A stretch of 64,000 bases of DNA from Candidatus Nomurabacteria bacterium (GCA_029288775.1 JARIGQ010000004.1:67303-131302), one strand, 5' to 3'. Positions 4,170-54,722 are shown, numbered from the stretch's first letter. Notes: generated by a model not told the origin, from the sequence alone. Numbers and translations: made by a program.

Positions 4170-4178
4170 TGCTACACT
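4170..4178 (+). promoter_or_regulatory. Extended -10 (TGcTACACT) 9 nt upstream of the mreB paralog 1 ATG; predicted leaderless
   Basis: TGnTAnnnT pattern; no SD before the ATG at 4188. Confidence 0.4.
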
Positions 4179-4187
4179 TGTAGGTAC

Positions 4188-5201
4188 ATGGGATTTTTCT
4201 CCAAAAAGCTTGGTATTGATTTAGGTACCGCAAACACACTCGTGTATGTTCCACAAAAAGGGGTGGTACTTGTTGAGCCTTCTGTAGTTGCGGTGTCGGA
4301 AATCGATAATCGCATTATGGCGGTGGGTAATGAAGCTAAGGATATGATTGGTAAGACACCGGACTCGATAGTTGCGTACCGTCCCATGCGTGATGGAGTG
4401 ATTGCAGACTATCGTGTTACTGAGGCCATGCTTCGTTATTACATCAATAAGGCGCTTAAGGGTTTCAATCTTTTTAAACCAGATGTGATGGTTTCTGTGC
4501 CGGCCGGTGTGACATCAACTGAGCGCCGTGCCGTTATCGAAGCCGCACTTAAAGCGGGAGCTCGTAACGCGTATGTAGTGAAGGAGCCTATTCTTGCGGC
4601 AATTGGTGCCGGTATTCCTATTCATGAAGCGCAAGGGCGCATGATTGTAGATATTGGAGGAGGGACGACAGACGTCGCGGTGATTTCGCTTGGAGGTATT
4701 GTGTGCAGTACATCCGTAAAGTGTGCTGGTAATAAAGTCGATCAGGCGATCATTGATTACATTAAGAAAACGTATAATTTGGCAATTGGCGATCAAACAG
4801 CAGAAGAGATCAAAATCAAAATTGGGTCTGCACTTCCACTAGAAGAAGAGCTTTCCATGAAAGTGAAGGGTCGGGATTTTATTGCAGGCCTTCCGCGTAC
4901 CGTAGAGATTCGAACTAACGAAATAGTTAAGGCAATTGATAAGGAGTTGCGCATCATGATCAAGGCGATTAAGGATGTGCTTCAGGAAACACCGCCAGAA
5001 TTGGCGTCAGACATTATCGATAACGGCATCATCATGTCTGGAGGAACCTCCATGCTTCGTCATTTCCCGGATTTGGTGGAACGTCGCACTGGGGTAAAGG
5101 CGGTACTTGCCGAAGATGCATTCTATTGCGTAGCAAAGGGAACAGGGACGGCGCTTGAACATCTTGATACCTACAAGCGTTCCATATTTGCGAAGCGATA
5201 A
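4188..5201 (+). CDS. mreB: Rod-shape determining actin homolog MreB (paralog 1)
   Basis: GIDLGTANTLVYV phosphate-1 motif and DIGGGTTD; start chosen at MGFFSKK. Confidence 0.9.
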   Translation: MGFFSKKLGIDLGTANTLVYVPQKGVVLVEPSVVAVSEIDNRIMAVGNEAKDMIGKTPDSIVAYRPMRDGVIADYRVTEAMLRYYINKALKGFNLFKPDVMVSVPAGVTSTERRAVIEAALKAGARNAYVVKEPILAAIGAGIPIHEAQGRMIVDIGGGTTDVAVISLGGIVCSTSVKCAGNKVDQAIIDYIKKTYNLAIGDQTAEEIKIKIGSALPLEEELSMKVKGRDFIAGLPRTVEIRTNEIVKAIDKELRIMIKAIKDVLQETPPELASDIIDNGIIMSGGTSMLRHFPDLVERRTGVKAVLAEDAFYCVAKGTGTALEHLDTYKRSIFAKR

Positions 5202-5202
5202 A

Positions 5203-5229
5203 GAAAAAGCCGGCACATGCCGGCTTTTC
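5203..5229. terminator. Bidirectional intrinsic terminator
   Basis: GCCGGCACATGCCGGC hairpin followed by TTTTC and preceded by an A-run. Confidence 0.65.
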
Positions 5230-5572
5230 AGTCTTCCTGTAAGTCGTTTGTTTCAGTGAAGTCTCTGAGAAGGTCTTTTATTTTTTCAGGAAGCTCATTA
5301 TAAGAAGTAGTACGAGCCAGAGTTTGAAGTCGTATTCCAAGTTCGTCTAAGTTATCAGCCAGTTCCTCAAGGCGCCCACTTATACCCTCTTTTACAAGGC
5401 ACGGAACTTCCTTTTGAATGAATGCATCCATGTGCGCCGCAAGAGCACTTTCCATATGCGATTTAAAAGCTTCTGCTAAGCGCCGTATGCGCGGATCCGG
5501 ATCAAGGTGCGCATAATTTAGGAATTCTTCATCGTTGAGAAAGGTTCCAAATCGTTCGAGAAATGAGTCCAT
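5228..5572 (-). CDS. Hypothetical helical protein
   Basis: ORF with SD-like GGAGGG 5 nt upstream of the ATG on the - strand. Confidence 0.5.
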   Translation of the reverse strand: MDSFLERFGTFLNDEEFLNYAHLDPDPRIRRLAEAFKSHMESALAAHMDAFIQKEVPCLVKEGISGRLEELADNLDELGIRLQTLARTTSYNELPEKIKDLLRDFTETNDLQED

Positions 5573-5641
5573 GAACCCTCCATAAGAACATAACTTCGTA
5601 ATACTAGCATAATTACCTAATCTTCTTCCTGGGCCCTTGTT

Positions 5642-5650
5642 TGATATACT
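5642..5650 (+). promoter_or_regulatory. Extended -10 TGaTATACT, 6 nt before the ATG at 5657
   Basis: TGnTATACT match. Confidence 0.45.
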
Positions 5651-5656
5651 TTTTAT

Positions 5657-6304
5657 ATGAAATTCTCTGAGTTACCTAACCATCACGCTCTTCTTCTTAC
5701 TCATGACGAGCGTGTAGGGTATACAGGTAAGCTTTGGAAAGAGCTCTCTTCTCTTTCTCCAGCGCATCGTTTCTTTAATCAAACCGTGCTTGATATTGAG
5801 ACGGCTCGGTCTATCATCGCTTGGGCGCAGACACCGTATCATGAAGAACGCGTGGGACTTATTTCGTTTGCATCTGCTGGTATTCCTGCTCAGAATGCCA
5901 TGTTAAAGATTTTGGAAGAACCACGTACTAATACACGATTTATTCTTGTTGTTCCCAGTCGTTCCGCGCTTATTGATACAGTGCTTTCACGTCTTCAGCA
6001 TATTCCACTGACGAGCCAAGGGGTACTTGATGAGGCGTATGCTTTTCTTACCAGTCCTTCTGTGTCACGTATGAAGCTCATCTTTATCGCTGAACTTCTG
6101 GCACAGACAGACGAAGAAGGAAGAAAAGATAGGGAAGCTATTAAAGGATATATCCTTTCGCTCGCCGATGCTCTCAAAGATAAGCGCTCGCCGAGGCGTT
6201 TTGTGGAAGAAACGCTTCGCATAGCGTCCTATGCCTCTGATCCTTCGGCGTCAGGAAAAGCGCTTCTGGAATATCTTAGCCTTCTGCTCCCAACGATTAA
6301 ATGA
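5657..6304 (+). CDS. holB: DNA polymerase III delta'-like clamp-loader subunit, short
   Basis: LKILEEP box and SRL-type sensor region; N-terminal P-loop degenerate. Confidence 0.6.
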   Translation: MKFSELPNHHALLLTHDERVGYTGKLWKELSSLSPAHRFFNQTVLDIETARSIIAWAQTPYHEERVGLISFASAGIPAQNAMLKILEEPRTNTRFILVVPSRSALIDTVLSRLQHIPLTSQGVLDEAYAFLTSPSVSRMKLIFIAELLAQTDEEGRKDREAIKGYILSLADALKDKRSPRRFVEETLRIASYASDPSASGKALLEYLSLLLPTIK

Positions 6305-6323
6305 TAGAATTGGGCGCATCACT

Positions 6324-6878
6324 ATGGCATATAACTTTGCAGACGTTAAACAAAAGAAAAGCGACATCTTAGAGTGGCTCGCCAACGAATACCGCTCTAT
6401 TCAGACAGGGCGTGCGACACCGCAGGTGCTAGACCTTGTGCATATCGATCTCTATGGTGCGCGTACTCCTATTGCCCACACCGGGTCTATCAATATAGAG
6501 GATCCGCGAACATTGCGCGTAGCTCCCTGGGATAAATCAGTTATTGGTCAGATGGAAAAAGCTATCAATGAAGCAGATCTCGGACTTTCAGTTTCATCGG
6601 ACGATCAGGGGCTTCGTGTGCATTTTCCGGCACTTACTACAGAAACTCGCCAAAAGCTTGTAAAAATTTTGAAGGAACGATTGGAGGATGCCCGAGTACG
6701 CGTGCGTGCACTTCGTGAAGAAACCAACAAAGACATCGACGCACAAGCAAAAGAGGGCAATTATGGAGAAGATGATCGTGTACGTTTTCGTGATGAAATG
6801 CAAAGCATTGTAGATGCTGCTAACGGTGAATTAGAGGCACTATTTGATAAAAAAGAAAAGGAAGTGATGGGAGAATAA
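6324..6878 (+). CDS. frr: Ribosome recycling factor
   Basis: Full-length RRF similarity; start moved to MAYNF (ATG at 6324), preceded by TGaTAGAAT at 6302-6310. Confidence 0.92.
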   Translation: MAYNFADVKQKKSDILEWLANEYRSIQTGRATPQVLDLVHIDLYGARTPIAHTGSINIEDPRTLRVAPWDKSVIGQMEKAINEADLGLSVSSDDQGLRVHFPALTTETRQKLVKILKERLEDARVRVRALREETNKDIDAQAKEGNYGEDDRVRFRDEMQSIVDAANGELEALFDKKEKEVMGE

Positions 6879-7222: not shown

Positions 7223-7231
7223 TGGTATACT
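7223..7231 (+). promoter_or_regulatory. Extended -10 TGgTATACT, 7 nt before the rseP ATG
   Basis: TGnTATACT. Confidence 0.4.
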
Positions 7232-7238
7232 AAGTTAC

Positions 7239-8336
7239 ATGTCAGTATCTTCGATTCTGTTATTTTTAGTTATATTGCTCGTGCTGGTTATTGTGCATGA
7301 GTTTGGGCATTTTATAACTGCTAAGCTTGTGAATATGCGTGTCGATGAATTTGCATTTGGATTCCCTCCGCGTATTTTTGCCAAGCAAAAAGGGGAAACT
7401 ACGTACGCAATTAACGCACTTCCGCTTGGAGGATATGTATCTATCTGGGGAGAAAATGGCGAGCCAGATGATGCCGCGAAAACACATCCGCGTGCCTTTT
7501 CCAATCGGCCGAAATGGGCACAACTCCTTGTACTTGTCGCTGGTGTCACAATGAACATGCTGCTTGCTTTTTTAATTTTCGTGGGCACGTCGTTTGGCTC
7601 TGTACAAATGAGCTCAGATGATCCAACGTACGGCTCGCGTATTCAGCATGCAGCACTTACCGTGGTCGACGCAACTCCTGATTCTCCTGCATATAAGGCA
7701 GGTATTGTACCAGGATCAGTGCTTATTAAGATTGTAAGTGGAGGACAAACTGCTACCCTTGAGAGCGCAACCTCCGTAGTGTCGTTTATTGAGCGTCATC
7801 AGAATGATCCATTCTCCATTTCTTATATTTCTCCCGATGGTCAACAGGCAAGTACGGTGATCGCTGCGGTATATGGAATTGTTCCGGACAAAAAGGCACT
7901 TGGGGTATCGTTGTCTATGGTCGGCATAGTGCACACCACACCTTGGGAAGCGGTTAAGCTTGGTTATCAGACTACTTTTAATATGACGTACACTACTGTG
8001 CAAGGGTTAGCGTCACTTGTGACTTCAATTGGGCAAGGTAAGAATGTGCTTTCTTCGCTTGCCGGACCGATTGGTATTGCGCGGGTGGTAGGTGAGACAA
8101 GTCACTATGGTTGGACTGCACTTCTGTCGCTTGTTGCTATTCTTTCTATCAATTTGGCTGTATTTAATATTTTGCCTTTGCCGGCACTTGATGGAGGGCG
8201 AGTTGTTGTGGTGCTTTTGGAAACAGTCACTCGAAAAAGAATTCCTTACAAATATTACTCATGGCTTAATATTGTGGGTTTTGCTGCTCTGATGTGTCTG
8301 CTCATTGTGGTGAGTATTCATGATGTCTCAATGTAG
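7239..8336 (+). CDS. rseP: Site-2 zinc metalloprotease RseP/RIP family with PDZ domain
   Basis: HEFGHF HExxH, LDGG, PDZ-like segment, multiple TM; start chosen at MSVSSILLF. Confidence 0.85.
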   Translation: MSVSSILLFLVILLVLVIVHEFGHFITAKLVNMRVDEFAFGFPPRIFAKQKGETTYAINALPLGGYVSIWGENGEPDDAAKTHPRAFSNRPKWAQLLVLVAGVTMNMLLAFLIFVGTSFGSVQMSSDDPTYGSRIQHAALTVVDATPDSPAYKAGIVPGSVLIKIVSGGQTATLESATSVVSFIERHQNDPFSISYISPDGQQASTVIAAVYGIVPDKKALGVSLSMVGIVHTTPWEAVKLGYQTTFNMTYTTVQGLASLVTSIGQGKNVLSSLAGPIGIARVVGETSHYGWTALLSLVAILSINLAVFNILPLPALDGGRVVVVLLETVTRKRIPYKYYSWLNIVGFAALMCLLIVVSIHDVSM

Positions 8337-8338
8337 TT

Positions 8339-8347
8339 TGGTATACT
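8339..8347 (+). promoter_or_regulatory. Extended -10 TGgTATACT, 10 nt before the proS ATG
   Basis: TGnTATACT. Confidence 0.45.
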
Positions 8348-8357
8348 AAATGTTCTT

Positions 8358-9623
8358 ATGCGACAATCCCAGCTTTATACCAAAACTCGAAAAGAAGCTC
8401 CGGCTGATGAAATTGCTAAAAATGCGCAGTTGCTCATTCGTGCAGGTTTTATCAATAAAGAAATGGCGGGAGCCTATGCTTATCTACCGCTTGGATTGCG
8501 CGTGCTCAATAAAATCATGGATGTTATTCGTGATGAAATGAATACCATCGGGGGACAGGAAATTACGCTTCCCGCGCTTCAAGAACCAGAAGTCTGGGAA
8601 AAGACGAATCGTTGGAGTGAAGAGGTTGTCGATGTGTGGTTCAAAACGGAACTCAAGTCTGGCGCTAAAGTCGGTTTAGGATTTACCCATGAAGAGCCGT
8701 TTACGCGCATGATGAAGCAGTTCATTAGAAGTTATAAAGATCTGCCGGTATACGCCTACCAATTTCAGACAAAGTTTCGCAATGAAACTCGAGCAAAGTC
8801 AGGGATTATGCGTACGCGTGAATTTATTATGAAAGACCTTTATTCTTTCTGTCGTACCAAGGAAGATCAGGAGAAGTATTATGAAGTAGTAAAGGAAGCA
8901 TACGTAAAAATTTTCAATCGTTTAGGTATTGGTGAAAAGACGTATGTAACATTCGCTTCAGGGGGCGTTTTCTCAAAGTATTCGCATGAATTCCAAACTA
9001 TTTGTGATGCAGGTGAGGATGAAATTTATATTCATGATGGTAAGCGTATTGCGATTAATAAAGAAGTGATGCTACCTGAAGTGCTTGCTGATTTGGGTGT
9101 AAAGCAAGAAGATCTTCGCGTGGAAAAAGCATCCGAAGTTGGAAATATTTTCAACCTTGGAACAAGATTTTCGGAAGCTCTTGAACTTTCCTATCAAGAT
9201 GAAGAGGGGATAAGTCAGCCTGTCTGGATGGGATCCTACGGTATCGGACCTGCACGTGTTATGGGGGTGATCGTCGAATTGTTATCGGATGCAAAAGGGC
9301 TTGTGTGGCCGGCTGAAGTAGCGCCATTTTCTGTACATTTGATTTCTCTTTCTAAAGACAAGGATTCGCAAGCAGCAAAGACAGCAGAGGAGTTGTATAC
9401 AAAACTAACAGACGCGCATGTGGAAGTGCTTTTTGATGACCGTGAGGAATCTGCCGGAGCTAAGTTTGCCGATAGTGATTTAATTGGTATTCCTATGCGA
9501 GTCGTGGTGTCTGACAAGTCATTGCAGGCAGGAGGTGTAGAAATCAAGGAACGTACAAGTGATACTTCGGAAATTGTAACGGTAGAACAGTTGCTGAAGT
9601 CGTTTGCTCAGAATTGCGATTAA
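8358..9623 (+). CDS. proS: Prolyl-tRNA synthetase, short form without a large editing insertion
   Basis: Class II ProRS motifs and anticodon-binding domain; 421 aa. Confidence 0.9.
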   Translation: MRQSQLYTKTRKEAPADEIAKNAQLLIRAGFINKEMAGAYAYLPLGLRVLNKIMDVIRDEMNTIGGQEITLPALQEPEVWEKTNRWSEEVVDVWFKTELKSGAKVGLGFTHEEPFTRMMKQFIRSYKDLPVYAYQFQTKFRNETRAKSGIMRTREFIMKDLYSFCRTKEDQEKYYEVVKEAYVKIFNRLGIGEKTYVTFASGGVFSKYSHEFQTICDAGEDEIYIHDGKRIAINKEVMLPEVLADLGVKQEDLRVEKASEVGNIFNLGTRFSEALELSYQDEEGISQPVWMGSYGIGPARVMGVIVELLSDAKGLVWPAEVAPFSVHLISLSKDKDSQAAKTAEELYTKLTDAHVEVLFDDREESAGAKFADSDLIGIPMRVVVSDKSLQAGGVEIKERTSDTSEIVTVEQLLKSFAQNCD

Positions 9624-10196: not shown

Positions 10197-10205
10197 TGCT
10201 AGAAT
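10197..10205 (+). promoter_or_regulatory. Extended -10 TGcTAGAAT, 6 nt before the mreB paralog 2 ATG; predicted leaderless
   Basis: TGnTAGAAT. Confidence 0.45.
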
Positions 10206-10211
10206 AGGTGC

Positions 10212-11261
10212 ATGTTCGAGCGCCTCTATCGCCAATTTTCCAACGATATCGGGATTGATCTTGGTACCGCAAATACACTCGTCTATCTCCGCGGACGAGG
10301 TATTGTCATCAATGAGCCCTCCGTTGTTGCACTTAATCAAAAAACCTCGCGTGTGGTAGCTGTTGGTGCCGAAGCTAAAGATATGATGGGGCGCACCCCA
10401 TCTCACATTCGCATTGTGCGACCGCTTGTGGATGGTGTGATTTCTGATTATGAGGTAACCGAAGAAATGCTGGCGTATCTTATTAATAAAGCCAACGAGG
10501 TAGATAAAAAACTTTTTCGTCCGCGAGTTGTAGTGGGTATCCCCGTCGGGATTACCAACGTTGAAATGCGCGCAGTGTACGACGCTGCAAAGTCAGCAGG
10601 TGCTCGCGAGGTCTATATTGTCGAAGAGCCGATGGCTGCAGCAATCGGTGTGCATATGCCCATTCATGAGCCTGTAGGAAGCATGATTGTCGATATTGGC
10701 GGCGGAACTACCGACATTGCGGTAATTGCTCTTGGTGGCGTGGTGCGCTCGAAGTCGCTTAAAGTTGCGGGTGATAAGTTAACGCAAGATATCATCAGTT
10801 ACATGCGTGATGAGTTCAAAATGCTTATCGGAGAAAAAACTGCAGAACATATCAAAATGACTATTGGAAGTGCGCTTCCAGACGATGAAGGGGAAGAGCT
10901 TTCTGTAAAAGGGCGTGATTTGGTAACCGGGCTTCCACGAGAAGCTATTATTACCGATGTTGATATTCGAGAGGCTATGTATGCTTCCATAGCTCAACTT
11001 GTAGAAGCTATTCGTGAAGTTCTGGAAACGACACCTCCGGAGGTGCTTGCTGATATTATGCATAAAGGTATGACTATTTCCGGAGGGGGTGCGCTTATCA
11101 GGAATCTTCCTAAGCTTTTGGAGATGCAACTTAAGGTTCCTGTAAGTGTCGCTGATGATCCACTCACTGCTGTTGCGCGAGGTACGGGAGTTATACTAGA
11201 ACATATCGATACGTACGAAGACGTTCTCGTTCAAAATACAGATGAAATATCGTTCCGGTAA
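10212..11261 (+). CDS. mreB: Rod-shape determining protein MreB (paralog 2)
   Basis: GIDLGTANTLVY and DIGGGTTD motifs. Confidence 0.9.
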   Translation: MFERLYRQFSNDIGIDLGTANTLVYLRGRGIVINEPSVVALNQKTSRVVAVGAEAKDMMGRTPSHIRIVRPLVDGVISDYEVTEEMLAYLINKANEVDKKLFRPRVVVGIPVGITNVEMRAVYDAAKSAGAREVYIVEEPMAAAIGVHMPIHEPVGSMIVDIGGGTTDIAVIALGGVVRSKSLKVAGDKLTQDIISYMRDEFKMLIGEKTAEHIKMTIGSALPDDEGEELSVKGRDLVTGLPREAIITDVDIREAMYASIAQLVEAIREVLETTPPEVLADIMHKGMTISGGGALIRNLPKLLEMQLKVPVSVADDPLTAVARGTGVILEHIDTYEDVLVQNTDEISFR

Positions 11262-12036: not shown

Positions 12037-12184
12037 AACCATTATTTTTGCACTTCTTATTCTATTTGCAGCGCTTATTGATGCGACGCTTGGGACTGCT
12101 TCGAAGCCGATTCTGCTGATTATTGTCTGTGCTATTATTGCCTTATATGAATTTGTTTCGCCATACGTCTACACGCCGAGCTAG
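12026..12184 (+). CDS. Candidate minimal MreD-like membrane micropeptide (52 aa) in the mreD position
   Basis: MSIKTIIFALLILFAALIDATLGTASKPILLIIVCAIIALYEFVSPYVYTPS; ATG overlaps the mreC stop; overlaps the annotated PBP2 start. Confidence 0.3.
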   Translation: MSIKTIIFALLILFAALIDATLGTASKPILLIIVCAIIALYEFVSPYVYTPS

Positions 12185-13873: not shown

Positions 13874-13882
13874 TGGTAGAAT
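13874..13882 (+). promoter_or_regulatory. Extended -10 TGgTAGAAT upstream of greA
   Basis: TGnTAGAAT 15 nt before the ATG, no SD. Confidence 0.45.
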
Positions 13883-13897
13883 TGGAAAACTAAATAT

Positions 13898-14353
13898 ATG
13901 GAATATCTAACACCTGAAAAGAAGCTCGAGCTTGAAAACGAGCTCAATCAATTGAAAACGGTGCGTCGCAAGGAAATTGCAGATGCCCTTGAATATGCCA
14001 AGTCACTCGGTGACCTTTCCGAAAACGCGGAATACCACCAGGCTCGCGAAGATCAGGCAAACTGCGAAGACCGTATTGCTCACCTTGAGCAAATTCTTAA
14101 GAATGCAGTTGTGGCTGACAAGCATCACGCAAATACTGTAGAAGTAGGAACAACGGTAACAGTAGTAAAGAAAGGCGAAAAAGATGAGCGTCAGTTTACG
14201 CTTGTAGGGAGCGAAGAAGCAGATTCACTCGAGGGTAAGATCTCAAACGAATCACCACTTGGTGCTGCGCTTTTAGGTAAGGCTAAAGGGGATACGGTTA
14301 CATTTTCTACTCCAAAAGGAGAGACAAGTTATACCATCAAGAATATTGCATAA
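13898..14353 (+). CDS. greA: Transcription elongation factor GreA
   Basis: GDLSENAEYHQAREDQ motif. Confidence 0.92.
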   Translation: MEYLTPEKKLELENELNQLKTVRRKEIADALEYAKSLGDLSENAEYHQAREDQANCEDRIAHLEQILKNAVVADKHHANTVEVGTTVTVVKKGEKDERQFTLVGSEEADSLEGKISNESPLGAALLGKAKGDTVTFSTPKGETSYTIKNIA

Positions 14354-14763: not shown

Positions 14764-14772
14764 TGCTATAAT
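14764..14772 (+). promoter_or_regulatory. Extended -10 TGcTATAAT upstream of lysS
   Basis: Perfect TGnTATAAT 9 nt before the ATG. Confidence 0.5.
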
Positions 14773-14781
14773 TTCTATACT

Positions 14782-16236
14782 ATGGCATCAATTGACGAGC
14801 TCCGCGCCGAGCGCATGAAGAAATTGGAAGCACTTCAAGCTTCCGGACAAAATCCTTATCCAGCAATATCTCGTCGAACGCATGAATTAAGCGATGTGGT
14901 ACGCGGCTTTAAGACGCTTGAGAGCGAAGGTACGCAGGTGATTGTGTCTGGTCGCGTGATGGGCGCGCGTGGGCAGGGAGCGCTTATCTTTATTGATCTC
15001 TATGATGGAACGGCCAAGCTTCAGGCGGTCATCAAGCTTCCTGAATCAGGTGAAGAGGCACACGCATTTTTTAATGCCTATGTGGATGTGGGTGATTTCA
15101 TTGAAGTGACAGGAACACTTTTTACTACCAAATCAGGTCAGGAGAGTGTGCTTGTTACTGCTGTTTCTATGCTTTCTAAGGCGCTTCTTCCGCTTCCGGA
15201 CAAGTATCACGGCATTCAGGATGAGGAGCTTCGTTTACGCGAGCGTTACTTGGATATTCTCACCAATCCCGAACTTCGCGAAATGATTGAGAAAAAAGCA
15301 AAGTTTTGGGAAGTGGTACGCGAATTTTTGAAGGAAAAGAAATTCGTGGAAGTTGAAACGCCAACACTTGAAGTAACTACAGGCGGAGCAGAAGCACGTC
15401 CGTTCGCAACGCATCATCATGATTTCGATCTTGATGTGTTCATGCGCATCTCGGTAGGTGAATTATGGCAGAAGCGATTGATGGCGGCAGGATTTCCGCG
15501 TACGTATGAAATTGGACGTGTGTATCGTAATGAAGGATCCTCTCCAGAGCATGTGCAAGAATTTACGAATTGTGAATTTTACATGGCTTATGCGGATTAT
15601 GAGGAAGGAATGAAACTTGTCGAAGAGTTGTACAAGAAAATTGCTCTGGAAGTATTTGGTACTACTACATTTACCACCCGCGGGCATACGTTTGATCTTG
15701 CTAATGAATGGAAGCACATTGATTATCGAGATGAAGTTATGCGTCAGACGGGGATTGATATTACTTCGGCTACTCTTGAAGAGCTTAAGGCTAAAGCTGA
15801 CGAATTGCATATCAAATATGATGGAGTGAATGAAGAACGTCTGATCGACACGCTTTGGAAATACTGTCGCAAGAATATTGCAGGACCAGCATTCCTCATT
15901 AATCACCCTTTGCTTGTAGCGCCACTTGCTAAGAAAAATCCAGACGGAGTAACTGCACAGATTTTCCAACCTATACTTGCCGGATCAGAAATCGGTAAGG
16001 GGTATTCGGAGTTGAATGATCCACTTGATCAGCGGGTGCGCTTCGAGAAACAGCAGGAATTGCTTGCAGGAGGGGATGAAGAAGCAATGATGGCGGATGA
16101 TTCGTTTGTGGAAATGCTTGAGCATGGCATGCCACCGACGTGTGGATTTGGATTTGGGGAGCGATTATTCGCCTTTTTGGCTGATAAGCCGATACGCGAA
16201 GTGCACACGTTCCCATTGGTAAAACCTAAAGCGTAG
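14782..16236 (+). CDS. lysS: Lysyl-tRNA synthetase, class II
   Basis: OB-fold N-domain plus class II motifs; start chosen at MASIDEL. Confidence 0.92.
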   Translation: MASIDELRAERMKKLEALQASGQNPYPAISRRTHELSDVVRGFKTLESEGTQVIVSGRVMGARGQGALIFIDLYDGTAKLQAVIKLPESGEEAHAFFNAYVDVGDFIEVTGTLFTTKSGQESVLVTAVSMLSKALLPLPDKYHGIQDEELRLRERYLDILTNPELREMIEKKAKFWEVVREFLKEKKFVEVETPTLEVTTGGAEARPFATHHHDFDLDVFMRISVGELWQKRLMAAGFPRTYEIGRVYRNEGSSPEHVQEFTNCEFYMAYADYEEGMKLVEELYKKIALEVFGTTTFTTRGHTFDLANEWKHIDYRDEVMRQTGIDITSATLEELKAKADELHIKYDGVNEERLIDTLWKYCRKNIAGPAFLINHPLLVAPLAKKNPDGVTAQIFQPILAGSEIGKGYSELNDPLDQRVRFEKQQELLAGGDEEAMMADDSFVEMLEHGMPPTCGFGFGERLFAFLADKPIREVHTFPLVKPKA

Positions 16237-19785: not shown

Positions 19786-19791
19786 TAGTAT
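19783..19791 (+). promoter_or_regulatory. Extended -10 TGaTAGTAT, 6 nt before the methyltransferase ATG
   Basis: TGnTAnnnT. Confidence 0.35.
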
Positions 19792-19797
19792 CGAGAT

Positions 19798-20610: not shown

Positions 20611-20619
20611 TGATATACT
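20611..20619 (+). promoter_or_regulatory. Extended -10 TGaTATACT upstream of the dsbA-like gene
   Basis: TGnTATACT 8 nt before the ATG at 20628. Confidence 0.4.
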
Positions 20620-20627
20620 GGAGGTCT

Positions 20628-38017: not shown

Positions 38018-38053
38018 TAAAACACGCCTGCAATTGCAGGCGTGTTTCTATTT
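38018..38053 (+). terminator. Intrinsic terminator after dnaJ
   Basis: ACACGCCTGCAATTGCAGGCGTGT followed by TTCTATTT. Confidence 0.7.
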
Positions 38054-38124
38054 GCAATTACCTTACAAGTTTTCTAGAATGAGGCTTTCTGTTGTTCGTT
38101 GTTCTAACAAAGAGGAGAGAGGTG

Positions 38125-40327: not shown

Positions 40328-40336
40328 TGCTATACT
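40328..40336 (+). promoter_or_regulatory. Extended -10 TGcTATACT, 6 nt before the trpS ATG (leaderless)
   Basis: TGnTATACT. Confidence 0.5.
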
Positions 40337-40342
40337 TTCTCT

Positions 40343-41341
40343 ATGTTTGGTTTTTCTTCCACCTCTAAACGTATTTTGGTATCTGGTATTCAAGCCACAG
40401 GTAAGCTTCACTTTGGCAATTATTTCGGTGCAATGAAGCAAAATATTGATTTAGCTAACAGTGGAGAATTTACTCCCTATATTTTTATTGCCGATTATCA
40501 CGCTCTCACTACTGTAAAGGACAGGGAAGCGCTTCGTCAAAGTGCTCTTGAAATAGCGGCGGCATATATTGCATGTGGTTTGGATACTTCGCGCGCGATC
40601 TTATTTCGGCAATCATTTGTGCCGCAGCATACCGAACTTGCATGGGTATTAAATAACGTGGTTACCATGCCGTATCTTATGCGTGCCCACGCGTACAAGG
40701 ATCATGAAGCGAAAGACAAAGAAGTAAATGTCGGATTATTTGATTATCCGGTATTAATGGCGGCTGATATTTTGATGTATCAAGCAGATGTGGTACCGGT
40801 AGGACAAGATCAGAAGCAACACATCGAGTACGCGCGTGACATCGCTGGATTTTATAATCGTGCATGGAATGTCGAGCAGTTTAAGCTTCCTAAGGATTTG
40901 ATTTTGGAAACGGTTGCGATAGTACCAGGTATCGACGGACAGAAAATGAGTAAGAGTAAAGGAAATGTCATTTCACTTTTTGGTACAGATGAAGAAGTAC
41001 GTAAGGCAGTAATGTCCGTTGTTACTGACTCTAAGGCACCCAGTGAGAAAAAGGACCCAGATACCAATAACGTATACGCTATTCATAAACTTTTTCTTAC
41101 CAATGCAGAAGATGCAGAGCTTCGACGTAGGTTTGAGCAGGGAGGCTATGGATACAAAGAGGCAAAAGAAGCGTTACTTGCCGCTATTATGAAATGGCGT
41201 GAAGGCAAGAAAGCTCTCTTTGATGATTTGATGCAGCACCCGGAGAAGATTGAAAGAATTCTTGAAGAGGGGGGCAGGAAAGCTCGTAAACAGGCAGAAG
41301 AAACAATGAAAGCGGTGCGCACTCAGGTTGGCTTACAATAA
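40343..41341 (+). CDS. trpS: Tryptophanyl-tRNA synthetase
   Basis: HFGNYFG HIGH-type motif and KMSKS. Confidence 0.92.
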   Translation: MFGFSSTSKRILVSGIQATGKLHFGNYFGAMKQNIDLANSGEFTPYIFIADYHALTTVKDREALRQSALEIAAAYIACGLDTSRAILFRQSFVPQHTELAWVLNNVVTMPYLMRAHAYKDHEAKDKEVNVGLFDYPVLMAADILMYQADVVPVGQDQKQHIEYARDIAGFYNRAWNVEQFKLPKDLILETVAIVPGIDGQKMSKSKGNVISLFGTDEEVRKAVMSVVTDSKAPSEKKDPDTNNVYAIHKLFLTNAEDAELRRRFEQGGYGYKEAKEALLAAIMKWREGKKALFDDLMQHPEKIERILEEGGRKARKQAEETMKAVRTQVGLQ

Positions 41342-41352: not shown

Positions 41353-41361
41353 TGATATAGT
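41353..41361 (+). promoter_or_regulatory. Extended -10 TGaTATAGT, 9 nt before the aspS ATG
   Basis: TGnTAnnnT. Confidence 0.45.
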
Positions 41362-41370
41362 AGAGAAACT

Positions 41371-42777
41371 ATGCGTACGTATATCAAGGATATTTCAGGA
41401 TTTGTTGGGAAAGAGGTGGAAGTCTCGGGGTGGATAGACGTGCGCCGCGACCAGGGTAAGATGGTCTTTTTGGACTTGCGAGATGTAACAGGTAAAGTGC
41501 AGGCGGTTGTGCTTCCAAACCATGAAGAAGCGCTTTTGGTTGCACAGAAAGTCCGCTCGGAGTGGGTGGTAAAGGTGAGCGCACAGGTAAACAAGCGCCC
41601 AGAAAAAAATATTAAAGCTGGAGTGGTCAATGGCGATGTCGAACTCGAAGTGCTTGCAATTGAAGTATTAAATGAAGCAGAGACTCCTGCTTTTGATATT
41701 TCCACAGATGGGTATGAAGTAAACGAAGAAGTCCGCCTGGAAAAGAAGTATCTGGATCAGCGACGGGCTCGCATTCAGCGCAATGTGCAGCTCCGCCATA
41801 AGGTGGCAAAGTTCATTCGTGATGAATTGGATAAGCAACACTTTTTTGAAATAGAAACACCTCTTCTTACTAACCCCACTCCAGAAGGATCTCGATCCTA
41901 TCTTGTGCCTTCACGCTTATGGAACGGAAACTTCTATGCGCTCCCGCAATCTCCGCAGCAGTACAAGCAGCTTTTGATGGCAGGAGGATTCGAACGCTAT
42001 TTTCAATTTGCAAAATGTATGCGCGATGAAGACACACGTGGCGATCGCCAGCCAGAATTCACGCAGCTCGACATGGAGATGAGCTTTGTTTCGCAGGGGG
42101 ATGTTATGAAGCTTAATGAAGAGCTGCTCATTAAGCTTGTTACTCAACTTTTCCCTGAAAAACGCATCCAGCAGGTCCCGTTTCCTGTGCTTACCTATAA
42201 AGAAGCGATGGAAAAGTATGGGTCTGATAAGCCGGATCTTCGCGAAAATAAGAATGATCCAAATCTGCTTGCGTTTTGCTGGGTTGCAGATTTTCCTTTC
42301 TTTGAGAAGACAGGAGAGGATAACGTGGATGGAACAGGTGAGTGGACGTTTACGCATAACCCTTTTTCTCGGCCAAAAGAGGAGTACATGCAGGATTTGA
42401 TGGAGAAGAAAAATATTGGAGATATCTTAACAACGCAATACGACTTTGCATTAAACGGATACGAAGTGGGAGGGGGATCCATACGCAACCATACTCCAGA
42501 AGCTCTTCGCAAAGTATTTGAAATTATGGGCTACGATGCAGAGCGCATCGAAAAGAATTTCGGCCACATGCTTCGTGCACTTGCATCAGGTACGCCGCCA
42601 CACGGTGGAATTGCGTGGGGATTTGACCGCTTGATGATGATTTTACTTAACGAACCAAACATCCGGGAAACGATGGCATTCCCTAAGACAGGTGAAGGAA
42701 AAGACCTTTTGATGCAGGCACCAAGTCCGGCACCAGACAAGACTCTGCGCGAGCTTGGGATTACCTTCAAGAAATAA
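41371..42777 (+). CDS. aspS: Aspartyl-tRNA synthetase, compact form lacking the GAD insertion (possibly non-discriminating)
   Basis: QSPQQYKQLLM and CMRDEDTRGDRQPEFTQLDME motif 2; 468 aa. Confidence 0.85.
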   Translation: MRTYIKDISGFVGKEVEVSGWIDVRRDQGKMVFLDLRDVTGKVQAVVLPNHEEALLVAQKVRSEWVVKVSAQVNKRPEKNIKAGVVNGDVELEVLAIEVLNEAETPAFDISTDGYEVNEEVRLEKKYLDQRRARIQRNVQLRHKVAKFIRDELDKQHFFEIETPLLTNPTPEGSRSYLVPSRLWNGNFYALPQSPQQYKQLLMAGGFERYFQFAKCMRDEDTRGDRQPEFTQLDMEMSFVSQGDVMKLNEELLIKLVTQLFPEKRIQQVPFPVLTYKEAMEKYGSDKPDLRENKNDPNLLAFCWVADFPFFEKTGEDNVDGTGEWTFTHNPFSRPKEEYMQDLMEKKNIGDILTTQYDFALNGYEVGGGSIRNHTPEALRKVFEIMGYDAERIEKNFGHMLRALASGTPPHGGIAWGFDRLMMILLNEPNIRETMAFPKTGEGKDLLMQAPSPAPDKTLRELGITFKK

Positions 42778-42825
42778 TCTGGGTTTTTTGTCACGCAAGC
42801 CAAGAAAGCTTGTTATACTAGATAC

Positions 42826-43989
42826 ATGTCAAAGAAGCTTTTTGCTGCGTGTGCAGTCATTTTTGTTGGTGTTCTTGGCGGAGTACATCTTTTTGCTGCT
42901 ACAAAGGCCCCAACATTTGATATTAGTGTATGGATTCCCTATTGGCAGAAAACCGCAGGAGCTTCTTCTACGCTCACACATTTGGATAACGTAACCCAAA
43001 TCAGCCCTTTTGCGTATGAATTACAAGATGACGGAAGCATTAAAAATGCACTTAAAGCAACAGAGGAGCCGTGGCCTTCACTTATAGAAGAGGCACGCAA
43101 GAAAAATATCAAGATTTATCCAAGCATCCTTTCGTACGCATCAACGCCAACGGATCAGTACGCTATTTATCTTCTCTTAGCTCAAAAAAAGAAGCGCCTG
43201 GCTCATGTAGACGCAATTGTGGATCTGGTAAAGACAAATAAGTTTGACGGCATAGATATCGATTATGAAAATAAGCTTGCAGAAGATCGTGCTTATTTTT
43301 CTATCTTTTTAACTGAACTTGGAACCGCGCTTCATAAAAACGGAAAGAAGCTTATTTGTACTGTAGAAGCTCGCACGCCACCTGAAAGCAGATATGCAAC
43401 TACCTCCCAAGAAATTTTGAAGAAAGTAGAATATTCCAACGATTATAAAACTATCGGAAGTGTATGTGATCAGGTGCGTATTATGGCTTATGATCAAGGT
43501 GGGGACGATGCACTTTTGGTAAAGCAAAACGCGGCACTTGGGAATGTCTATAAGCCGGTAGCGGATATTAATTGGGTCATGAAAGTTGCAACGCTCGCAT
43601 TGTCTGATATTCCTGCTAAGAAAATTATACTCGGGGTGCCTACATACGGCTATAAATATGAAGTCATTCCTGCAACCGGAACATCAACCCAACTCTATTC
43701 GCGTATTGGTTCTATGAATTGGAATTACGCAGATGGTTTAGCAAAAAGTATTGGAGTAACTCCTACGAGAAACACTGCAGGAGAGTTGAGTTTTACTTAT
43801 GCTACAACAACTGGTGTCAATGGTGAAAGCTTAGGGGGTTGGCATCAGTATTTGGTGTGGTATAGCGATGCCCAAGCAATAGCTGACAAGCTTCGCATTG
43901 CGAAGTTATACAAGTTGGGCGGTATGAGTATCTTTAAAATAGACGGAGGTCAGGATCCGGGGATTTGGAGTGTATTAGGAACTCATTAA
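42826..43989 (+). CDS. Secreted glycoside hydrolase family 18 protein
   Basis: Signal peptide; DGIDIDYE catalytic DxxDxDxE motif. Confidence 0.7.
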   Translation: MSKKLFAACAVIFVGVLGGVHLFAATKAPTFDISVWIPYWQKTAGASSTLTHLDNVTQISPFAYELQDDGSIKNALKATEEPWPSLIEEARKKNIKIYPSILSYASTPTDQYAIYLLLAQKKKRLAHVDAIVDLVKTNKFDGIDIDYENKLAEDRAYFSIFLTELGTALHKNGKKLICTVEARTPPESRYATTSQEILKKVEYSNDYKTIGSVCDQVRIMAYDQGGDDALLVKQNAALGNVYKPVADINWVMKVATLALSDIPAKKIILGVPTYGYKYEVIPATGTSTQLYSRIGSMNWNYADGLAKSIGVTPTRNTAGELSFTYATTTGVNGESLGGWHQYLVWYSDAQAIADKLRIAKLYKLGGMSIFKIDGGQDPGIWSVLGTH

Positions 43990-44711: not shown

Positions 44712-44732
44712 GTAAATGGTACACTATATTCT

Positions 44733-45239
44733 ATGCTACAGAATCTCGTAACGTTGCTCTATCTTTCTGGTGAGCCGATGAAAATAGAAACGCTGGCCTC
44801 TTGTATGCAATGTTCTGCACAGGAGATAGAAAGTCATATAGACGAGCTCAAGAGAGCGCTTGAAGCAATTGGACTTTCGCTTCTGGTGAGTTCTGACGGG
44901 CTTTCGATCGTTACTCAATCCTCACAGGCTGCTCTTGTAGAGCGCTTCTGGAAAGAAGAGTTGCAAGGGGATCTTACTCCAGCCACGCTTCAAGTGCTTA
45001 CCCTTGTTGCGTATCTTGGCAATCCTACACGCGAAGAAATTTCTTATATTCGAGGAGTGCAGTCAACGCAATCCATACGAACGCTTACCGTGCGCGGGCT
45101 TATTTCCCGTCAAGGAGAGACATGTTCGCTTACCGGGCAAGCGTTGCAGGAGTTGGGAGTAACGAGTGTTGAAGAGTTGCCAGATTATGCAATCCTTCAT
45201 GCATCACTTCAAGAAAAATTAGAAGCTCGAGCTGCTTAG
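44733..45239 (+). CDS. scpB: Segregation and condensation protein B
   Basis: Tandem winged-helix ScpB. Confidence 0.85.
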   Translation: MLQNLVTLLYLSGEPMKIETLASCMQCSAQEIESHIDELKRALEAIGLSLLVSSDGLSIVTQSSQAALVERFWKEELQGDLTPATLQVLTLVAYLGNPTREEISYIRGVQSTQSIRTLTVRGLISRQGETCSLTGQALQELGVTSVEELPDYAILHASLQEKLEARAA

Positions 45240-46170: not shown

Positions 46171-46219
46171 CGGGGAATTGTGCCTTAAACCCCATGCTTT
46201 TATGTGATAGTATAAAAGC

Positions 46220-47293
46220 ATGTCAATCTCTCTTGATCTTTTCAAGGTCCTTCTCCCGGCTATTATCTCCTTTGCTATAGGTCTTATCGTCTCAGGACCG
46301 CTCATTACTATCTTAAAAAAGCATCAAATTTGGAAGAAAAAAAGTGTTAAGAACTCGATCGACGGGCAAATTGCTACTATTACTTCTACTCTTCATAATG
46401 ACGAAGAAAGAAAGCTTTTGCGTATGGGTGGCGCGGTGGTGTGGATTTCGGTGTTTACTACAACTGCTCTCTTTCTTGTTTTATCTCATGGTTTCCCTAC
46501 AGCAATTACCCAAAAGCTTGATTTTATTTCTCGAAACCAAACCTGGCTTCCGCTTGTTGCTATGTTTGTAGGAGCAATGGTAGGCGGACTGGACGATCTT
46601 CTTGTGGTGGAAGCATTTAAAGGCAGCCTTAATTCCTATATTGGCGGAGGGCTTTCATTTCCTGTGCGCTTGGCGTGTGTAGCTGCCCTTGGCATAGGTA
46701 TGGGTATGTGGTTTTTCTTCAAACTCGATGTTCATTCTATTTATATTCCTTTTCATGGAGATTATGTTGTGGGTGGACTTTTCTTCATTGTCTTTTTTGT
46801 ACTGGTTACGATTGCGCTTTTTTCGACGAGCGTCATCGATGGTGTGGACGGACTTTCGGGAGGTATCTTTTCAGCTATTTACACCGCATATGGATTCATA
46901 GCGTTTTATCAGCACCAAATCGACATCGCAGCTCTCTGCTTTATGATTGTAGGCGGCATTCTTGCTTTTTTGTGGTTTAACGTTCCACCGGCGGTATTTA
47001 TGATGGCCGAGACAGGGATTATGGCGCTCACGCTTTCACTTTCGGTTATTTCTTTTCTTACTAATTCGGTGATGTATTTGCCGGTCATTGCGCTTCCTTT
47101 GGTGATCACTACTGGCTCGGTGATTTTACAGCTTACCTGGAAGAAAGTCTTTAAAAGAAAACTTTTTCTCGTTGCTCCATTCCATCATCATCTCGAAGCA
47201 AAAGGATGGTCTAAGCCACAGGTTACTATGCGTTATTGGATTGTGTCATATATCTGTGCGCTTTTAGGTGTGGTGATTGTGCTTATAAGCTAA
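46220..47293 (+). CDS. mraY: Phospho-N-acetylmuramoyl-pentapeptide transferase
   Basis: MraY family TM topology and conserved D residues. Confidence 0.9.
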   Translation: MSISLDLFKVLLPAIISFAIGLIVSGPLITILKKHQIWKKKSVKNSIDGQIATITSTLHNDEERKLLRMGGAVVWISVFTTTALFLVLSHGFPTAITQKLDFISRNQTWLPLVAMFVGAMVGGLDDLLVVEAFKGSLNSYIGGGLSFPVRLACVAALGIGMGMWFFFKLDVHSIYIPFHGDYVVGGLFFIVFFVLVTIALFSTSVIDGVDGLSGGIFSAIYTAYGFIAFYQHQIDIAALCFMIVGGILAFLWFNVPPAVFMMAETGIMALTLSLSVISFLTNSVMYLPVIALPLVITTGSVILQLTWKKVFKRKLFLVAPFHHHLEAKGWSKPQVTMRYWIVSYICALLGVVIVLIS

Positions 47294-53613: not shown

Positions 53614-53631
53614 GGTTACTGCTAAGTAACT
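53614..53631. promoter_or_regulatory. Second copy of the palindromic motif GGTTACTGCTAAGTAACT
   Basis: Repeat of 52467-52484. Confidence 0.4.
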
Positions 53632-53890
53632 ATAAAGCTGTCTCACAACAATCCTTTCGTCAAGATCATTCATCGACACTAAAGAAACAAGGGTAGAAAC
53701 CAGTGTAACTTTTCACGGAATGAAATAATGGAATGGATAATTGATGTCGTACAATCCTTGTTGTTGTACGACAAGATATGTGGATAGCCTAAACCCCTCT
53801 ACGGAAACGTCGTAAAAGATATATTGTGCGACATTAGCCATATATAAGACCCCTGCCAAATAAAGCTAGAAATAAGGACTAAATAAAACG

Positions 53891-53906
53891 GTGCACAATT
53901 GTGCAC
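53891..53906. promoter_or_regulatory. Perfect 16-bp palindrome GTGCACAATTGTGCAC (candidate operator)
   Basis: Perfect dyad symmetry in a 610-nt noncoding region. Confidence 0.35.
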
Positions 53907-54109
53907 AAAGTTTGCATACGCACTCTCCTGCCCCATCCTCAGTCAGAGAGTAAAAGTTTTGTAATCCTTTTTCTTTTTTTCTGATTTTGCGATTTTAAGA
54001 TTTTTGACCTAAATCGACTTTGGGTTGGTTTTTGAACCAACTAATGAATTAATGATCATAATGGTAACTTATTGGAAGCGCTCTACTATTTCAAGTTTGA
54101 GTGGCTGTA

Positions 54110-54118
54110 TGGTAGTAT
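54110..54118 (+). promoter_or_regulatory. Extended -10 TGgTAGTAT upstream of the 54149 gene (leader carries a GAGGAGGA SD)
   Basis: TGnTAnnnT. Confidence 0.4.
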
Positions 54119-54148
54119 CAAGTCTTCAGTTCGTTTTGAGGAGGACAC

Positions 54149-54643
54149 ATGAGTTTATTGTTTGCGGGAGCATATCCGATGGGAACCGGTACAGCAAAAA
54201 CGGATGACGATCGTAAGGAGTGCATTCGTGAGACACTTCCATCGGCACTTCCTCCGATGAAGATGTGGTCGGAGGTCAAACCTGACGCGCCGGAGACTTT
54301 CGTTGTCATGAAAAAAGATGATCCGGATCGCTTCGTTCTCATGCGCCGGAATTTCGAAGGTTATCAATGGCGTGTGTACGGTATCCGCCAACCCGAGCTC
54401 CTTCTTTCTGAAGAAACCCGCAGAGCTGTTAAGCAGCTGGCGCGAGATGGTTTCGACGTAGAAGTGCGCGTCATTGGTGCGCTCCAAGTGGGTAAGCACA
54501 CTCTTTATCGGACGCGTACACAGCCCTATTGGTCCTATCTTCAGGATCATGCAGCTCAAGAAAACCTTCCAACTTCCGTGGAGGCCGAAAGTTTTCCCTC
54601 GGATTGGCGAGAAGTGCTTGCTAATTACGCGTATACACATTAG
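54149..54643 (+). CDS. Hypothetical protein, higher GC, strong SD
   Basis: GAGGAGGA 3 nt upstream of the ATG; preferred over the antisense shadow ORF. Confidence 0.5.
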   Translation: MSLLFAGAYPMGTGTAKTDDDRKECIRETLPSALPPMKMWSEVKPDAPETFVVMKKDDPDRFVLMRRNFEGYQWRVYGIRQPELLLSEETRRAVKQLARDGFDVEVRVIGALQVGKHTLYRTRTQPYWSYLQDHAAQENLPTSVEAESFPSDWREVLANYAYTH

Positions 54644-54659
54644 TGTGCACTCAGTTTTT

Positions 54660-54688
54660 CAGAGGACTCCTATGGGGTCCTTTTATTT
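54660..54688 (+). terminator. Intrinsic terminator
   Basis: AGGACTCC-TATG-GGGTCCT hairpin followed by TTTATTTT. Confidence 0.6.
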
Positions 54689-54713
54689 TACTCTAGAAAA
54701 AAGCCTGAAAATG

Positions 54714-54722
54714 TGGTATAAT
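54714..54722 (+). promoter_or_regulatory. Extended -10 TGgTATAAT upstream of the efflux operon
   Basis: Perfect TGnTATAAT. Confidence 0.45.

Follow-up and report, generated by a model that had tools for sequence, protein, structure and literature searches.

Within a stretch of DNA from a Candidatus Nomurabacteria bacterium (GCA_029288775.1 JARIGQ010000004.1:67303-131302; the whole stretch of 64,000 nucleotides [nt] is referred to here as the window), the motif TGnTAnnnT lies a short, nearly fixed distance upstream of the ATG start codon of 19 genes. Based on the sequence and on comparison with relatives, we consider it probable that these boxes are extended -10 promoters abutting the ATG, which would give leaderless or nearly leaderless mRNAs, with transcription starts deduced from the position of the box. 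This mechanism is already known; it is found here in a phylum, the Patescibacteria or candidate phyla radiation (CPR), for which we found no description of it.

Position of the Box Relative to Start Codons

Over the entire window, the motif shows no enrichment, with 115 matches on both strands compared with 134.8 expected from shuffled sequences. Despite this, it ends 6–10 nt before the ATG at 19 of 65 curated starts but at only 3 of 388 internal in-frame ATGs (odds ratio 53, p=8e-15), which upholds the claim of an earlier reading made from the DNA alone (the sequence-only reading) that the motif lies 6–10 nt upstream of the ATG of many genes. When the first ATGs of open reading frames (ORFs) of at least 100 amino acids (aa) are considered instead, 16 of 85 have the motif ending 6–10 nt upstream, compared with an expectation of 0.38 (Poisson P=7e-21), and none has it ending 0–5 or 11–12 nt upstream. 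The quality of the hexamer matters as well. Among 24 matches whose hexamer has at most one mismatch to TATAAT, 13 lie 6–10 nt before a start and four more lie 11–60 nt before one, and none of the 44 matches with three mismatches lies 6–10 nt before a start. These last two tests are independent of the curated start choices. Spacing, defined as the number of nucleotides that separate the final T of the motif from the ATG, is 6 nt at 10 of the 19 sites, 7 nt at two, 8 nt at two, 9 nt at four, and 10 nt at one, and the start codon is ATG in all 19 genes. Four more genes have a box 11–15 nt upstream and one more has a bare -10 element, so that leaderless-type genes make up 29–37% of genes and ~48–57% of inferred transcription units (20–24 of ~42 in this 64-kb sample).

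The sequence-only reading had cited 14 sites, all of which are where it placed them, with a spacing of 6–10 nt in 12 genes, 13 nt in frr, and 15 nt in greA. Its list of box-adjacent genes contains no false entry; however, it overlooked seven (PBP2, the hypothetical gene at 42811, scpB, mraY, def, priA, and spoU). Its interpretation of an extended -10 element abutting the start as a mark of leaderless or near-leaderless mRNA is supported by the sequence and comparative evidence given here, and its description of the mRNAs as mostly leaderless is reasonable per transcription unit (~20–24 of ~42) but not per gene (29–37%). The statement that no Shine–Dalgarno (SD) sequence separates motif and start is generally correct; the only SD-like exception is dsbA, in which GGAGGT stands between motif and ATG, 2 nt from the latter, and is not conserved in orthologues.

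The gene starts on which these counts depend are sound, because family profiles and homologue matches alike begin at the first residues: NCBIfam profile positions 1–5 align to residues 1–8 of the chosen proteins, and tblastn matches of the alanyl-tRNA synthetase (AlaRS) to 80 homologues begin at residues 1–8, mostly 1–3. A longest-ORF rule picks the wrong start for lysS, alaS, rseP, mreB1, and PBP2.

Promoter Features of the Box

In an alignment of the 19 sites, the hexamer positions left free by the search pattern are T in 12, A in 15, and A or C in 17, yielding TGnTATA[A/C]T, which is the sigma-70 extended -10 consensus; the TG is fixed by the search pattern itself. When the bare -10 site is included, the TG extension is present at 19 of 20 sites. 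No column of the -35 region carries information across the 19 aligned sites, and only aspS among them passes a scan for two-hexamer (-35/-10) promoters. In promoters of this type, sigma region 3.0 contacts the TG and thereby makes up for the absence of a -35 element. Promoter-like sites with two hexamers are not enriched in the window (23 vs. 33, 36 vs. 31, and 36 vs. 36 expected), and a classical -35/-10 scan was rejected as a detector, as it finds no enrichment and does not recover the sites.

Other genes have the box 24–60 nt upstream, separated from the start by a real SD, as in the hypothetical genes 5228..5572 and 54149..54643 (table 1). A box that functions at varying distances, even when a real SD separates it from the start, is best viewed as a promoter and not as a ribosome-binding site (RBS). 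A few promoters are of another kind. The sequence-only reading had described ribosomal protein promoters of the form TTGCnn-17-TAGAAT at 29938 (TTGCAA) and 31617 (TTGCCT), both of which are present, and a third lies at 38052; all three have a -35 element and lack the TG. The rpoA leader (~65 nt), downstream of the second, contains a G-run, GGAGGGAGGGG, at 31660-31670, ~40 nt before the ATG and too distant for an SD.

Bacterial RNA polymerase most often starts transcription 7 nt after the hexamer, so the modal spacing of 6 nt would place +1 on the A of the ATG, and spacings of 7–10 nt would leave a leader of 0–4 nt. Across 49 species, the start is indeed centred 7 nt after the hexamer (PMC12641261), and leaders of 0–4 nt are within the ~5-nt limit cited for the leaderless route (PMC4007540). 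For CPR, the one start-site set that we found, from TM7x, is derived from RNA-seq coverage, is imprecise according to its authors, and was used in a promoter survey (PMC12641261). The TM7x transcriptome preprint does not mention start sites or promoters.

The gene alaS is the cleanest case in the window: a predicted terminator is followed by TGCTATAAT, then by 6 nt, and then by the ATG. Six of the 19 box-adjacent genes are either divergent from their neighbor or separated from the preceding gene by over 100 nt, and because of this arrangement they need a promoter of their own.

Conservation of Box and Spacing in Patescibacteria

We compared the window with 73 loci from other genomes, comprising ~1.3 Mb of AlaRS neighborhoods, from which Firmicutes-like controls and two differently labelled loci (L018 and L079) were excluded. 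In these relatives, the distance from TGnTAnnnT to the first ATG of long ORFs peaks at 6–10 nt (34, 26, 15, 18, and 10 sites, compared with a background of ~2 per position). The peak is ATG-specific, with 108 ATG, 13 GTG, 3 TTG, and no CTG codons at 6–10 nt. Using crude first ATGs, a box is found before 10–12% in Saccharibacteria- and Microgenomates-labelled loci, ~5% in Parcubacteria-labelled loci, and 24% in the window, as opposed to 2% in five Firmicutes-like controls. Five-base SD cores show the opposite trend: they are found before 24% of starts in the Firmicutes-like controls but before 0–7% in the groups of Patescibacteria.

Individual genes are consistent with this distribution. Of 72 alaS orthologues from Patescibacteria, 31 have a box 5–11 nt from the ATG, compared with none of 30 rpsM and none of 27 rpoA orthologues (Fisher p=4e-10). 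L001 and L004 keep the exact 8-nt spacing of dsbA although their spacer sequence differs, L004 has the same ychF box at exactly 9 nt with different spacer letters, and the 12–15-nt spacing of infA is kept in L001, L002, and L004. The conservation of box and spacing while the spacer sequence changes indicates that selection acts on the box and on its distance to the ATG. Judging from these loci, the same architecture is apparently common across Patescibacteria.

Start Signals of the Remaining Genes

The 65 curated genes fall into three classes: leaderless-type (the 19 box-adjacent genes, the gene with a bare -10, and the four with a box at 11–15 nt), SD-led (seven), and neither (34). The sequence-only reading was right that leaderless and SD-led genes both exist and that the latter are a minority; however, it omitted the third class, which is the largest. 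The class assignments rest on duplex energies calculated with an assumed canonical anti-SD and on upstream motifs.

In seven genes (~11%), a duplex of -6 kcal/mol or stronger is predicted at a functional distance, with energies ranging from -8.5 to -12.2 kcal/mol. A canonical SD (GGAGG-like, 4–12 nt upstream) is accordingly confined to 7 of 65 starts and is not the majority signal. The genes named earlier as SD-led at 5572(-), 7150(-), 25554, 38125, and 54149 proved to be so, to which we add 14701(-) and 63402(-). None of the seven has a Pfam hit, six are small (72–164 aa; hyp38125 is 232 aa long), and four are on the minority strand. They had been characterized as higher-GC hypothetical genes: the absence of Pfam hits agrees with this, and their mean G+C content (GC) is higher (0.477 vs. 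0.448 for other genes, p=0.04), an excess that is seen in five genes but not in the other two. Their mean GC at third codon positions (GC3) is 0.50, compared with 0.38–0.42 in the other main gene classes. The gene at 7150(-) encodes a lipoprotein, as judged by an LVSC lipobox, and no counterpart of hyp25554 was found in the fetched loci, including those of the three closest relatives. From these features, a small set of lineage-specific hypothetical genes is predicted to use a canonical SD.

Three of the SD-led hypothetical genes (5228-5572, 6932-7150, and 14405-14701, all on the minus strand) are small ORFs that diverge from holB, rseP, and lysS at a distance of 80–88 nt; the combination of a divergent SD-led ORF with a leaderless-type housekeeping gene is thus a repeated arrangement. 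Near the first of them, an ATG at 5591 (-) lies 9 nt after a TGCTAGTAT box (5609-5601) and begins an ORF of 20 codons overlapping both the SD and the start codon of hypothetical gene 5572; this ORF may be a leaderless upstream ORF or may have arisen by chance. In a search for small leaderless ORFs, this was the one intergenic candidate; other short ORFs lie within or beside annotated coding sequences and look like chance occurrences.

The 34 genes with neither signal consist of 23 operon-internal and 11 leadered genes. The 20 nt upstream of their starts are G-poor (15–16% G), and complementarity to the anti-SD is depleted (-1.1 to -1.2 kcal/mol vs. -2.8 kcal/mol in the control). More generally, mean anti-SD duplex energy is -1.2 to -1.7 kcal/mol in the internal, leadered, and leaderless classes compared with -2.8 kcal/mol in the in-gene control; the leaderless-type class, at -1.7 kcal/mol, is likewise weaker than that control. 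Among the operon-internal genes, 17 of 23 overlap the upstream stop codon or start no more than 15 nt from it, a geometry indicative of translational coupling, and none of the 23 has a box upstream. Two further measures were discarded. Counts of four-base SD cores near starts equal those in the control, and the real SD class separates only by cores of at least five bases and by duplex energies. Weak folding of the mRNA 5' region does not mark leaderless genes, given that all start classes are less folded than in-gene controls.

Alternative Explanations

Several points weigh against the interpretation of the boxes as promoters of leaderless mRNAs. At the nine sites with a spacing of 7–10 nt and the four with 11–15 nt, a leader of 1–9 nt is as likely as none. 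Ten leaderless-type genes (proS, the methyltransferase gene, dsbA, alaS, trpS, aspS, hyp42826, scpB, mraY, and PBP2) lie 12–49 nt behind a gene on the same strand, and no terminator is predicted before any of them except alaS; given gaps of this size without a terminator, read-through transcripts would carry these genes internally too. In addition, the starts of genes without family hits were assigned manually and the gene classes rest on them, as the duplex energies rest on the canonical form assumed for the anti-SD.

These points leave room for an explanation in which the boxes are real promoters but minor ones, most of the genes being expressed from polycistronic read-through mRNAs, within which coupling or SD-independent initiation would start their translation, with leaderless mRNA as a minor species. 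The short gaps behind ten of the 19 genes speak for it, as does the fact that this organism clearly can translate internal genes lacking an SD. We nonetheless think it unlikely. A spacing of 6 nt at 10 of 19 sites, never of 0–5 nt, before ATG alone is a precision that would not be maintained if the start point of transcription were irrelevant; the spacing is kept in orthologues whose spacer sequence has changed; and the six genes that are divergent or follow a wide gap could not depend on read-through.

A second explanation, to which we assign a very low probability, is that TGnTAnnnT is not a promoter but a non-SD ribosome-binding or translation-enhancer signal in leadered mRNAs, similar to that of GeneMarkS-2 group B. 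The box does lie at the usual distance of an RBS from the start, in a genome region where SD sequences are almost absent. However, the group B motif precedes internal genes as well (PMC6028130), and the box is absent at 23 of 23 internal genes in the window and from all rpsM and rpoA orthologues (0/30 and 0/27). Its agreement with the sigma-70 extended -10 consensus includes the positions not forced by the search, and its occurrence elsewhere 24–60 nt before a gene, upstream of a real SD, is also at odds with a role in ribosome binding. Finally, the lack of enrichment over the whole window might suggest a chance or compositional artefact or misassigned starts, an idea already refuted by two independent positional tests (P=7e-21 and 8e-15), by starts backed by family profiles, and by replication of the pattern in ~70 independent genomes.

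Proposed Mechanism and Implications

We propose that the RNA polymerase with the primary sigma factor mainly uses extended -10 promoters (TGnTATA[A/C]T), for which a -35 element would not be needed. In about half of the transcription units, the box would lie 6–10 nt, most often 6 nt, before the ATG, and transcription would begin on the A of the ATG or no more than ~4 nt upstream, producing a leaderless mRNA. In other bacteria, leaderless mRNA is translated by loading of 70S ribosomes with IF2 and fMet-tRNA on the 5'-terminal AUG. Ribosomes here may load directly on the 5'-terminal AUG by this 70S/IF2-fMet-tRNA route, with no SD, a route that we infer for this organism. Downstream genes of operons have no SD, and their starts overlap the stop codon of the gene before or are at most ~15 nt away from it; their translation would most likely depend either on coupling (termination followed by reinitiation) or on SD-independent entry on G-poor, weakly structured RNA. 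The ychF gene (21762-22859) is itself of the leaderless type; YchF is reported to be a regulator of leaderless mRNA translation in Escherichia coli and is retained across CPR (PMC12641178).

Do these properties extend to the phylum? CPR ribosomes are reduced, with a shortened bS1, with uL1, bL9, and uL30 missing, and with the anti-SD lost in some lineages. We tentatively suggest, while leaning slightly toward doubt, that Patescibacteria/CPR as a phylum may run largely without SD-guided initiation, with leaderless first genes transcribed from extended -10 promoters that lack a -35 element and abut the ATG and with tightly coupled downstream genes, a minimal 70S-centred regime matched with reduced ribosomes. 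The breadth of such a regime is supported by the 70-locus sample, in which boxes are more frequent (10–12% or ~5% vs. 2%) and SD cores rarer (0–7% vs. 24%) than in the controls. This phylum-wide regime appears not to have been described before: we found no description in the literature on "leaderless" in Patescibacteria, CPR, Saccharibacteria, or Parcubacteria, in which respect the GeneMarkS-2 supplementary tables may record the trait.

Gene callers relying on the presence of an SD will place starts incorrectly in these genomes, and the combination of box and ATG can serve directly as a rule for annotating them. For the Saccharibacteria, which have recently become tractable, expression cassettes could be built with an extended -10 element fused 6 nt before the ATG, making an RBS unnecessary. 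Patescibacteria would also be added to Actinobacteria and Deinococcus as a third large leaderless-rich lineage, one with small genomes, small ribosomes, and low GC, which is relevant to two questions: whether leaderless initiation is an ancestral trait or has been derived several times, and how start codons are chosen by reduced ribosomes.

Gene Content of the Window and Additional Observations

The window is nearly all coding, with a GC of 42–46% and a predominance of genes on the plus strand; Rfam and tRNA scans found no tRNA, rRNA, or Rfam match in it. The gene names used by the sequence-only reading were borne out by NCBIfam and Pfam profiles, which support mreB (two copies), holB, frr, rseP, proS, greA, lysS, ychF, alaS, trpS, and aspS. 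The same profiles also name def-fmt, priA, mreC, PBP2, mraZ-rsmH-ftsI, mraY-ftsW-murG, gltX, infA-rpmJ-rpsM-rpsK-rpsD-rpoA-rplQ, grpE-dnaK-dnaJ, scpA/B, and an HlyD-AcrB pair. The boxes and other promoter features are listed in table 1.

Table 1. Promoter boxes, their spacing to the start codon, and related features of the window
Feature	Position	Strand	Motif	Spacing and start	Remarks
def	2032..2049	-	TGATAAAGT	6 nt, ATG	Leaderless-type
priA	4066..4083	-	TGCTATACT	6 nt, ATG	
mreB1	4170..4190	+	TGCTACACT	9 nt, ATG	
Hypothetical 5228..5572	5570..5609	-	TGCTAGTAT	ATG	Same promoter type; ~28 nt leader with GGAGG (SD)
holB-like	5642..5659	+	TGATATACT	6 nt, ATG	
frr	6302..6326	+	TGATAGAAT	13 nt, ATG	Very short predicted leader, no SD
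rseP	7223..7241	+	TGGTATACT	7 nt, ATG	
proS	8339..8360	+	TGGTATACT	10 nt, ATG	Box starts 3 nt past rseP stop codon
mreB2	10197..10214	+	TGCTAGAAT	6 nt, ATG	
PBP2 (mrdA)	12130..12149	+	TGCTATTAT	8 nt, ATG	
greA	13874..13900	+	TGGTAGAAT	15 nt, ATG	Very short predicted leader, no SD
lysS	14764..14784	+	TGCTATAAT	9 nt, ATG	
Methyltransferase	19783..19800	+	TGATAGTAT	6 nt, ATG	Box overlaps ftsI stop codon
dsbA-like	20611..20630	+	TGATATACT	8 nt, ATG	
ychF	21744..21764	+	TGATAAGAT	9 nt, ATG	
EamA transporter	23536..23555	+	TATACT	11 nt, ATG	No TG
Intrinsic terminator	25915..25936	+			Hairpin and T-run, directly upstream of alaS promoter
alaS	25946..25963	+	TGCTATAAT (25946-25954)	6 nt, ATG	
Hypothetical 27892	27879..27894	+	TATACT	7 nt, ATG	TG misplaced by one position
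infA	29681..29704	+	TGCTAGACT	12 nt, ATG	
Promoter before rpmJ-rpsM-rpsK-rpsD	29938..29966	+	TTGCAA-17-TAGAAT		-35 present, TG absent
Promoter before rpoA-rplQ	31617..31645	+	TTGCCT-17-TAGAAT		-35 present, TG absent
Promoter upstream of grpE-dnaK-dnaJ	34284..34292	+	TGGTAGAAT		Leadered; no SD at grpE or dnaK
Promoter before SD-led hypothetical 38125	38052..38080	+	TTGCAA-17-TAGAAT		-35 present, TG absent
trpS	40328..40345	+	TGCTATACT	6 nt, ATG	Box directly after upstream gene's stop codon
aspS	41353..41373	+	TGATATAGT	9 nt, ATG	
Hypothetical, 387 aa (42826)	42811..42828	+	TGTTATACT	6 nt, ATG	
scpB	44717..44735	+	TGGTACACT	7 nt, ATG	
mraY	46205..46222	+	TGATAGTAT	6 nt, ATG	
Hypothetical 54149..54643	54110..54151	+	TGGTAGTAT	ATG	Leadered (~30 nt, GAGGAGG), SD-led
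Promoter of HlyD/AcrB efflux operon	54714..54722	+	TGGTATAAT		Leadered; start 54750 or 54792
SpoU-type methyltransferase	62104..62121	-	TGCTATACT	6 nt, ATG	

The nearest relatives by AlaRS (77–81% identity) are three uncultured metagenome-assembled genomes labelled Candidatus Saccharibacteria or "bacterium" (from groundwater). The next matches, at no more than 62% identity, include Andersen-, Uhr-, Moran-, Kaiser-, and Woesebacteria and many Saccharimonadales, which places the window in a genome of the Patescibacteria (CPR). Twelve loci titled "uncultured Gammaproteobacteria/Pseudomonadales" (L003, L005, L009, L027, L032, L041, L054, L056, L058, L059, L066, and L072) encode a short Patescibacteria-type AlaRS with 47–62% identity to that of the window and look taxonomically mislabelled. 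Synthetases of the window are shortened: ProRS has 421 aa (8358-9623), AspRS 468 aa (41371-42777), and AlaRS 630 aa (25961-27853). ProRS and AspRS are each matched by their family profile in two separate segments, as though they lacked an internal domain, and AlaRS matches the short form PRK01584.

Other observations concern putative regulatory sites and unassigned regions. The start of mraZ is ATG 16376 and not the longest-ORF ATG 16325, the Pfam MraZ domain starting at residue 18 of the long ORF. The mraZ leader (region 16290-16376) contains tandem GTGGG repeats 10 nt apart (GTGGGGGATTGTGGGAGATT, 16335-16354) that resemble MraZ operator boxes, and a similar repeat lies upstream of mraZ in L004. 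A perfect palindrome, GAACAATTGTTC, at 63000-63011 is similar to a Cheo box (GAAC-N4-GTTC) and lies 26 nt upstream of the ATG of a gene for an S24 peptidase (LexA-like; 62410..62973, minus strand); it looks like an autoregulatory operator of the SOS response in a CPR genome. An HlyD-type adaptor and a 1071-aa AcrB-family resistance-nodulation-division pump are encoded at 54750-59587 in what is presumed to be a CPR genome, downstream of the best consensus promoter of the window (TGGTATAAT, 54714). Five gaps of 440–690 nt have no convincing gene (9624-10196, 21297-21743, 22860-23552, 52229-52665, and 53539-54148); they contain rival ORFs on both strands, with no Pfam or Rfam hit. Several are bordered by strong, apparently bidirectional terminators (9634-9657, 21664-21689, and 22860-22884), and the gaps could hold lineage-specific small proteins or unknown RNAs.

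Comparison with Known Systems

The closest known counterpart is group C of GeneMarkS-2, in which the first genes of operons lack an SD and are preceded by a Pribnow box at 6–8 nt from the start (~10 nt when measured to the centre of the box); this group includes 90% of Actinobacteria and 97% of Deinococcus-Thermus, with 25–50% of transcripts predicted to be leaderless (PMC6028130). In Deinococcus deserti, differential RNA sequencing placed the 5' end of 60% of mRNAs at an AUG or GUG or directly beside it (PMC4007540). The window has all of the sequence-level features of group C, namely a box at 6–10 nt, no SD (dsbA aside), at least 25% of units, and absence at internal genes. As in Mycobacterium tuberculosis, Streptomyces, and Deinococcus-Thermus, the box is near first-gene starts without an SD, in this case in ~48–57% of inferred units. 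Group C genomes are high in GC, whereas this is a small Patescibacteria/CPR genome of 44% GC. The TG extension is near-obligatory here (19 of 20 sites), whereas group C has a bare TAnnnT. Starts here are exclusively ATG, unlike in Deinococcus and mycobacteria, in which GUG is common. Finally, the remaining genes are also largely without an SD, in contrast to the nonleaderless operons of M. tuberculosis, which carry RBSs (PMC6028130).

Compared with extended -10 (TGn) sigma-70 promoters elsewhere, the boxes have the same TG one base upstream of a TATAAT-like hexamer and the same lack of a recognizable -35 element. Extended -10 promoters are a minority class in other bacteria but the apparent default here, where the few promoters with a -35 element (29938, 31617, and 38052) are without TG. 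The scarcity of SD sequences upstream of most genes is shared with SD-poor genomes, including Bacteroidota of group B and those CPR lineages that no longer have an anti-SD, the anti-SD motif being detected in only 48% of Parcubacteria (Tsurumaki et al. 2022, PMC9297842). The 16S rRNA 3' end is not within the window, and a search found the conserved 16S 3' region in none of the 80 fetched loci; the seven strong canonical SDs suggest that the anti-SD is probably retained in this organism. Unlike group B, which is defined by the same motif at first and internal genes, the window has no common non-SD motif before internal genes, and the box is a feature of first genes, as in group C.

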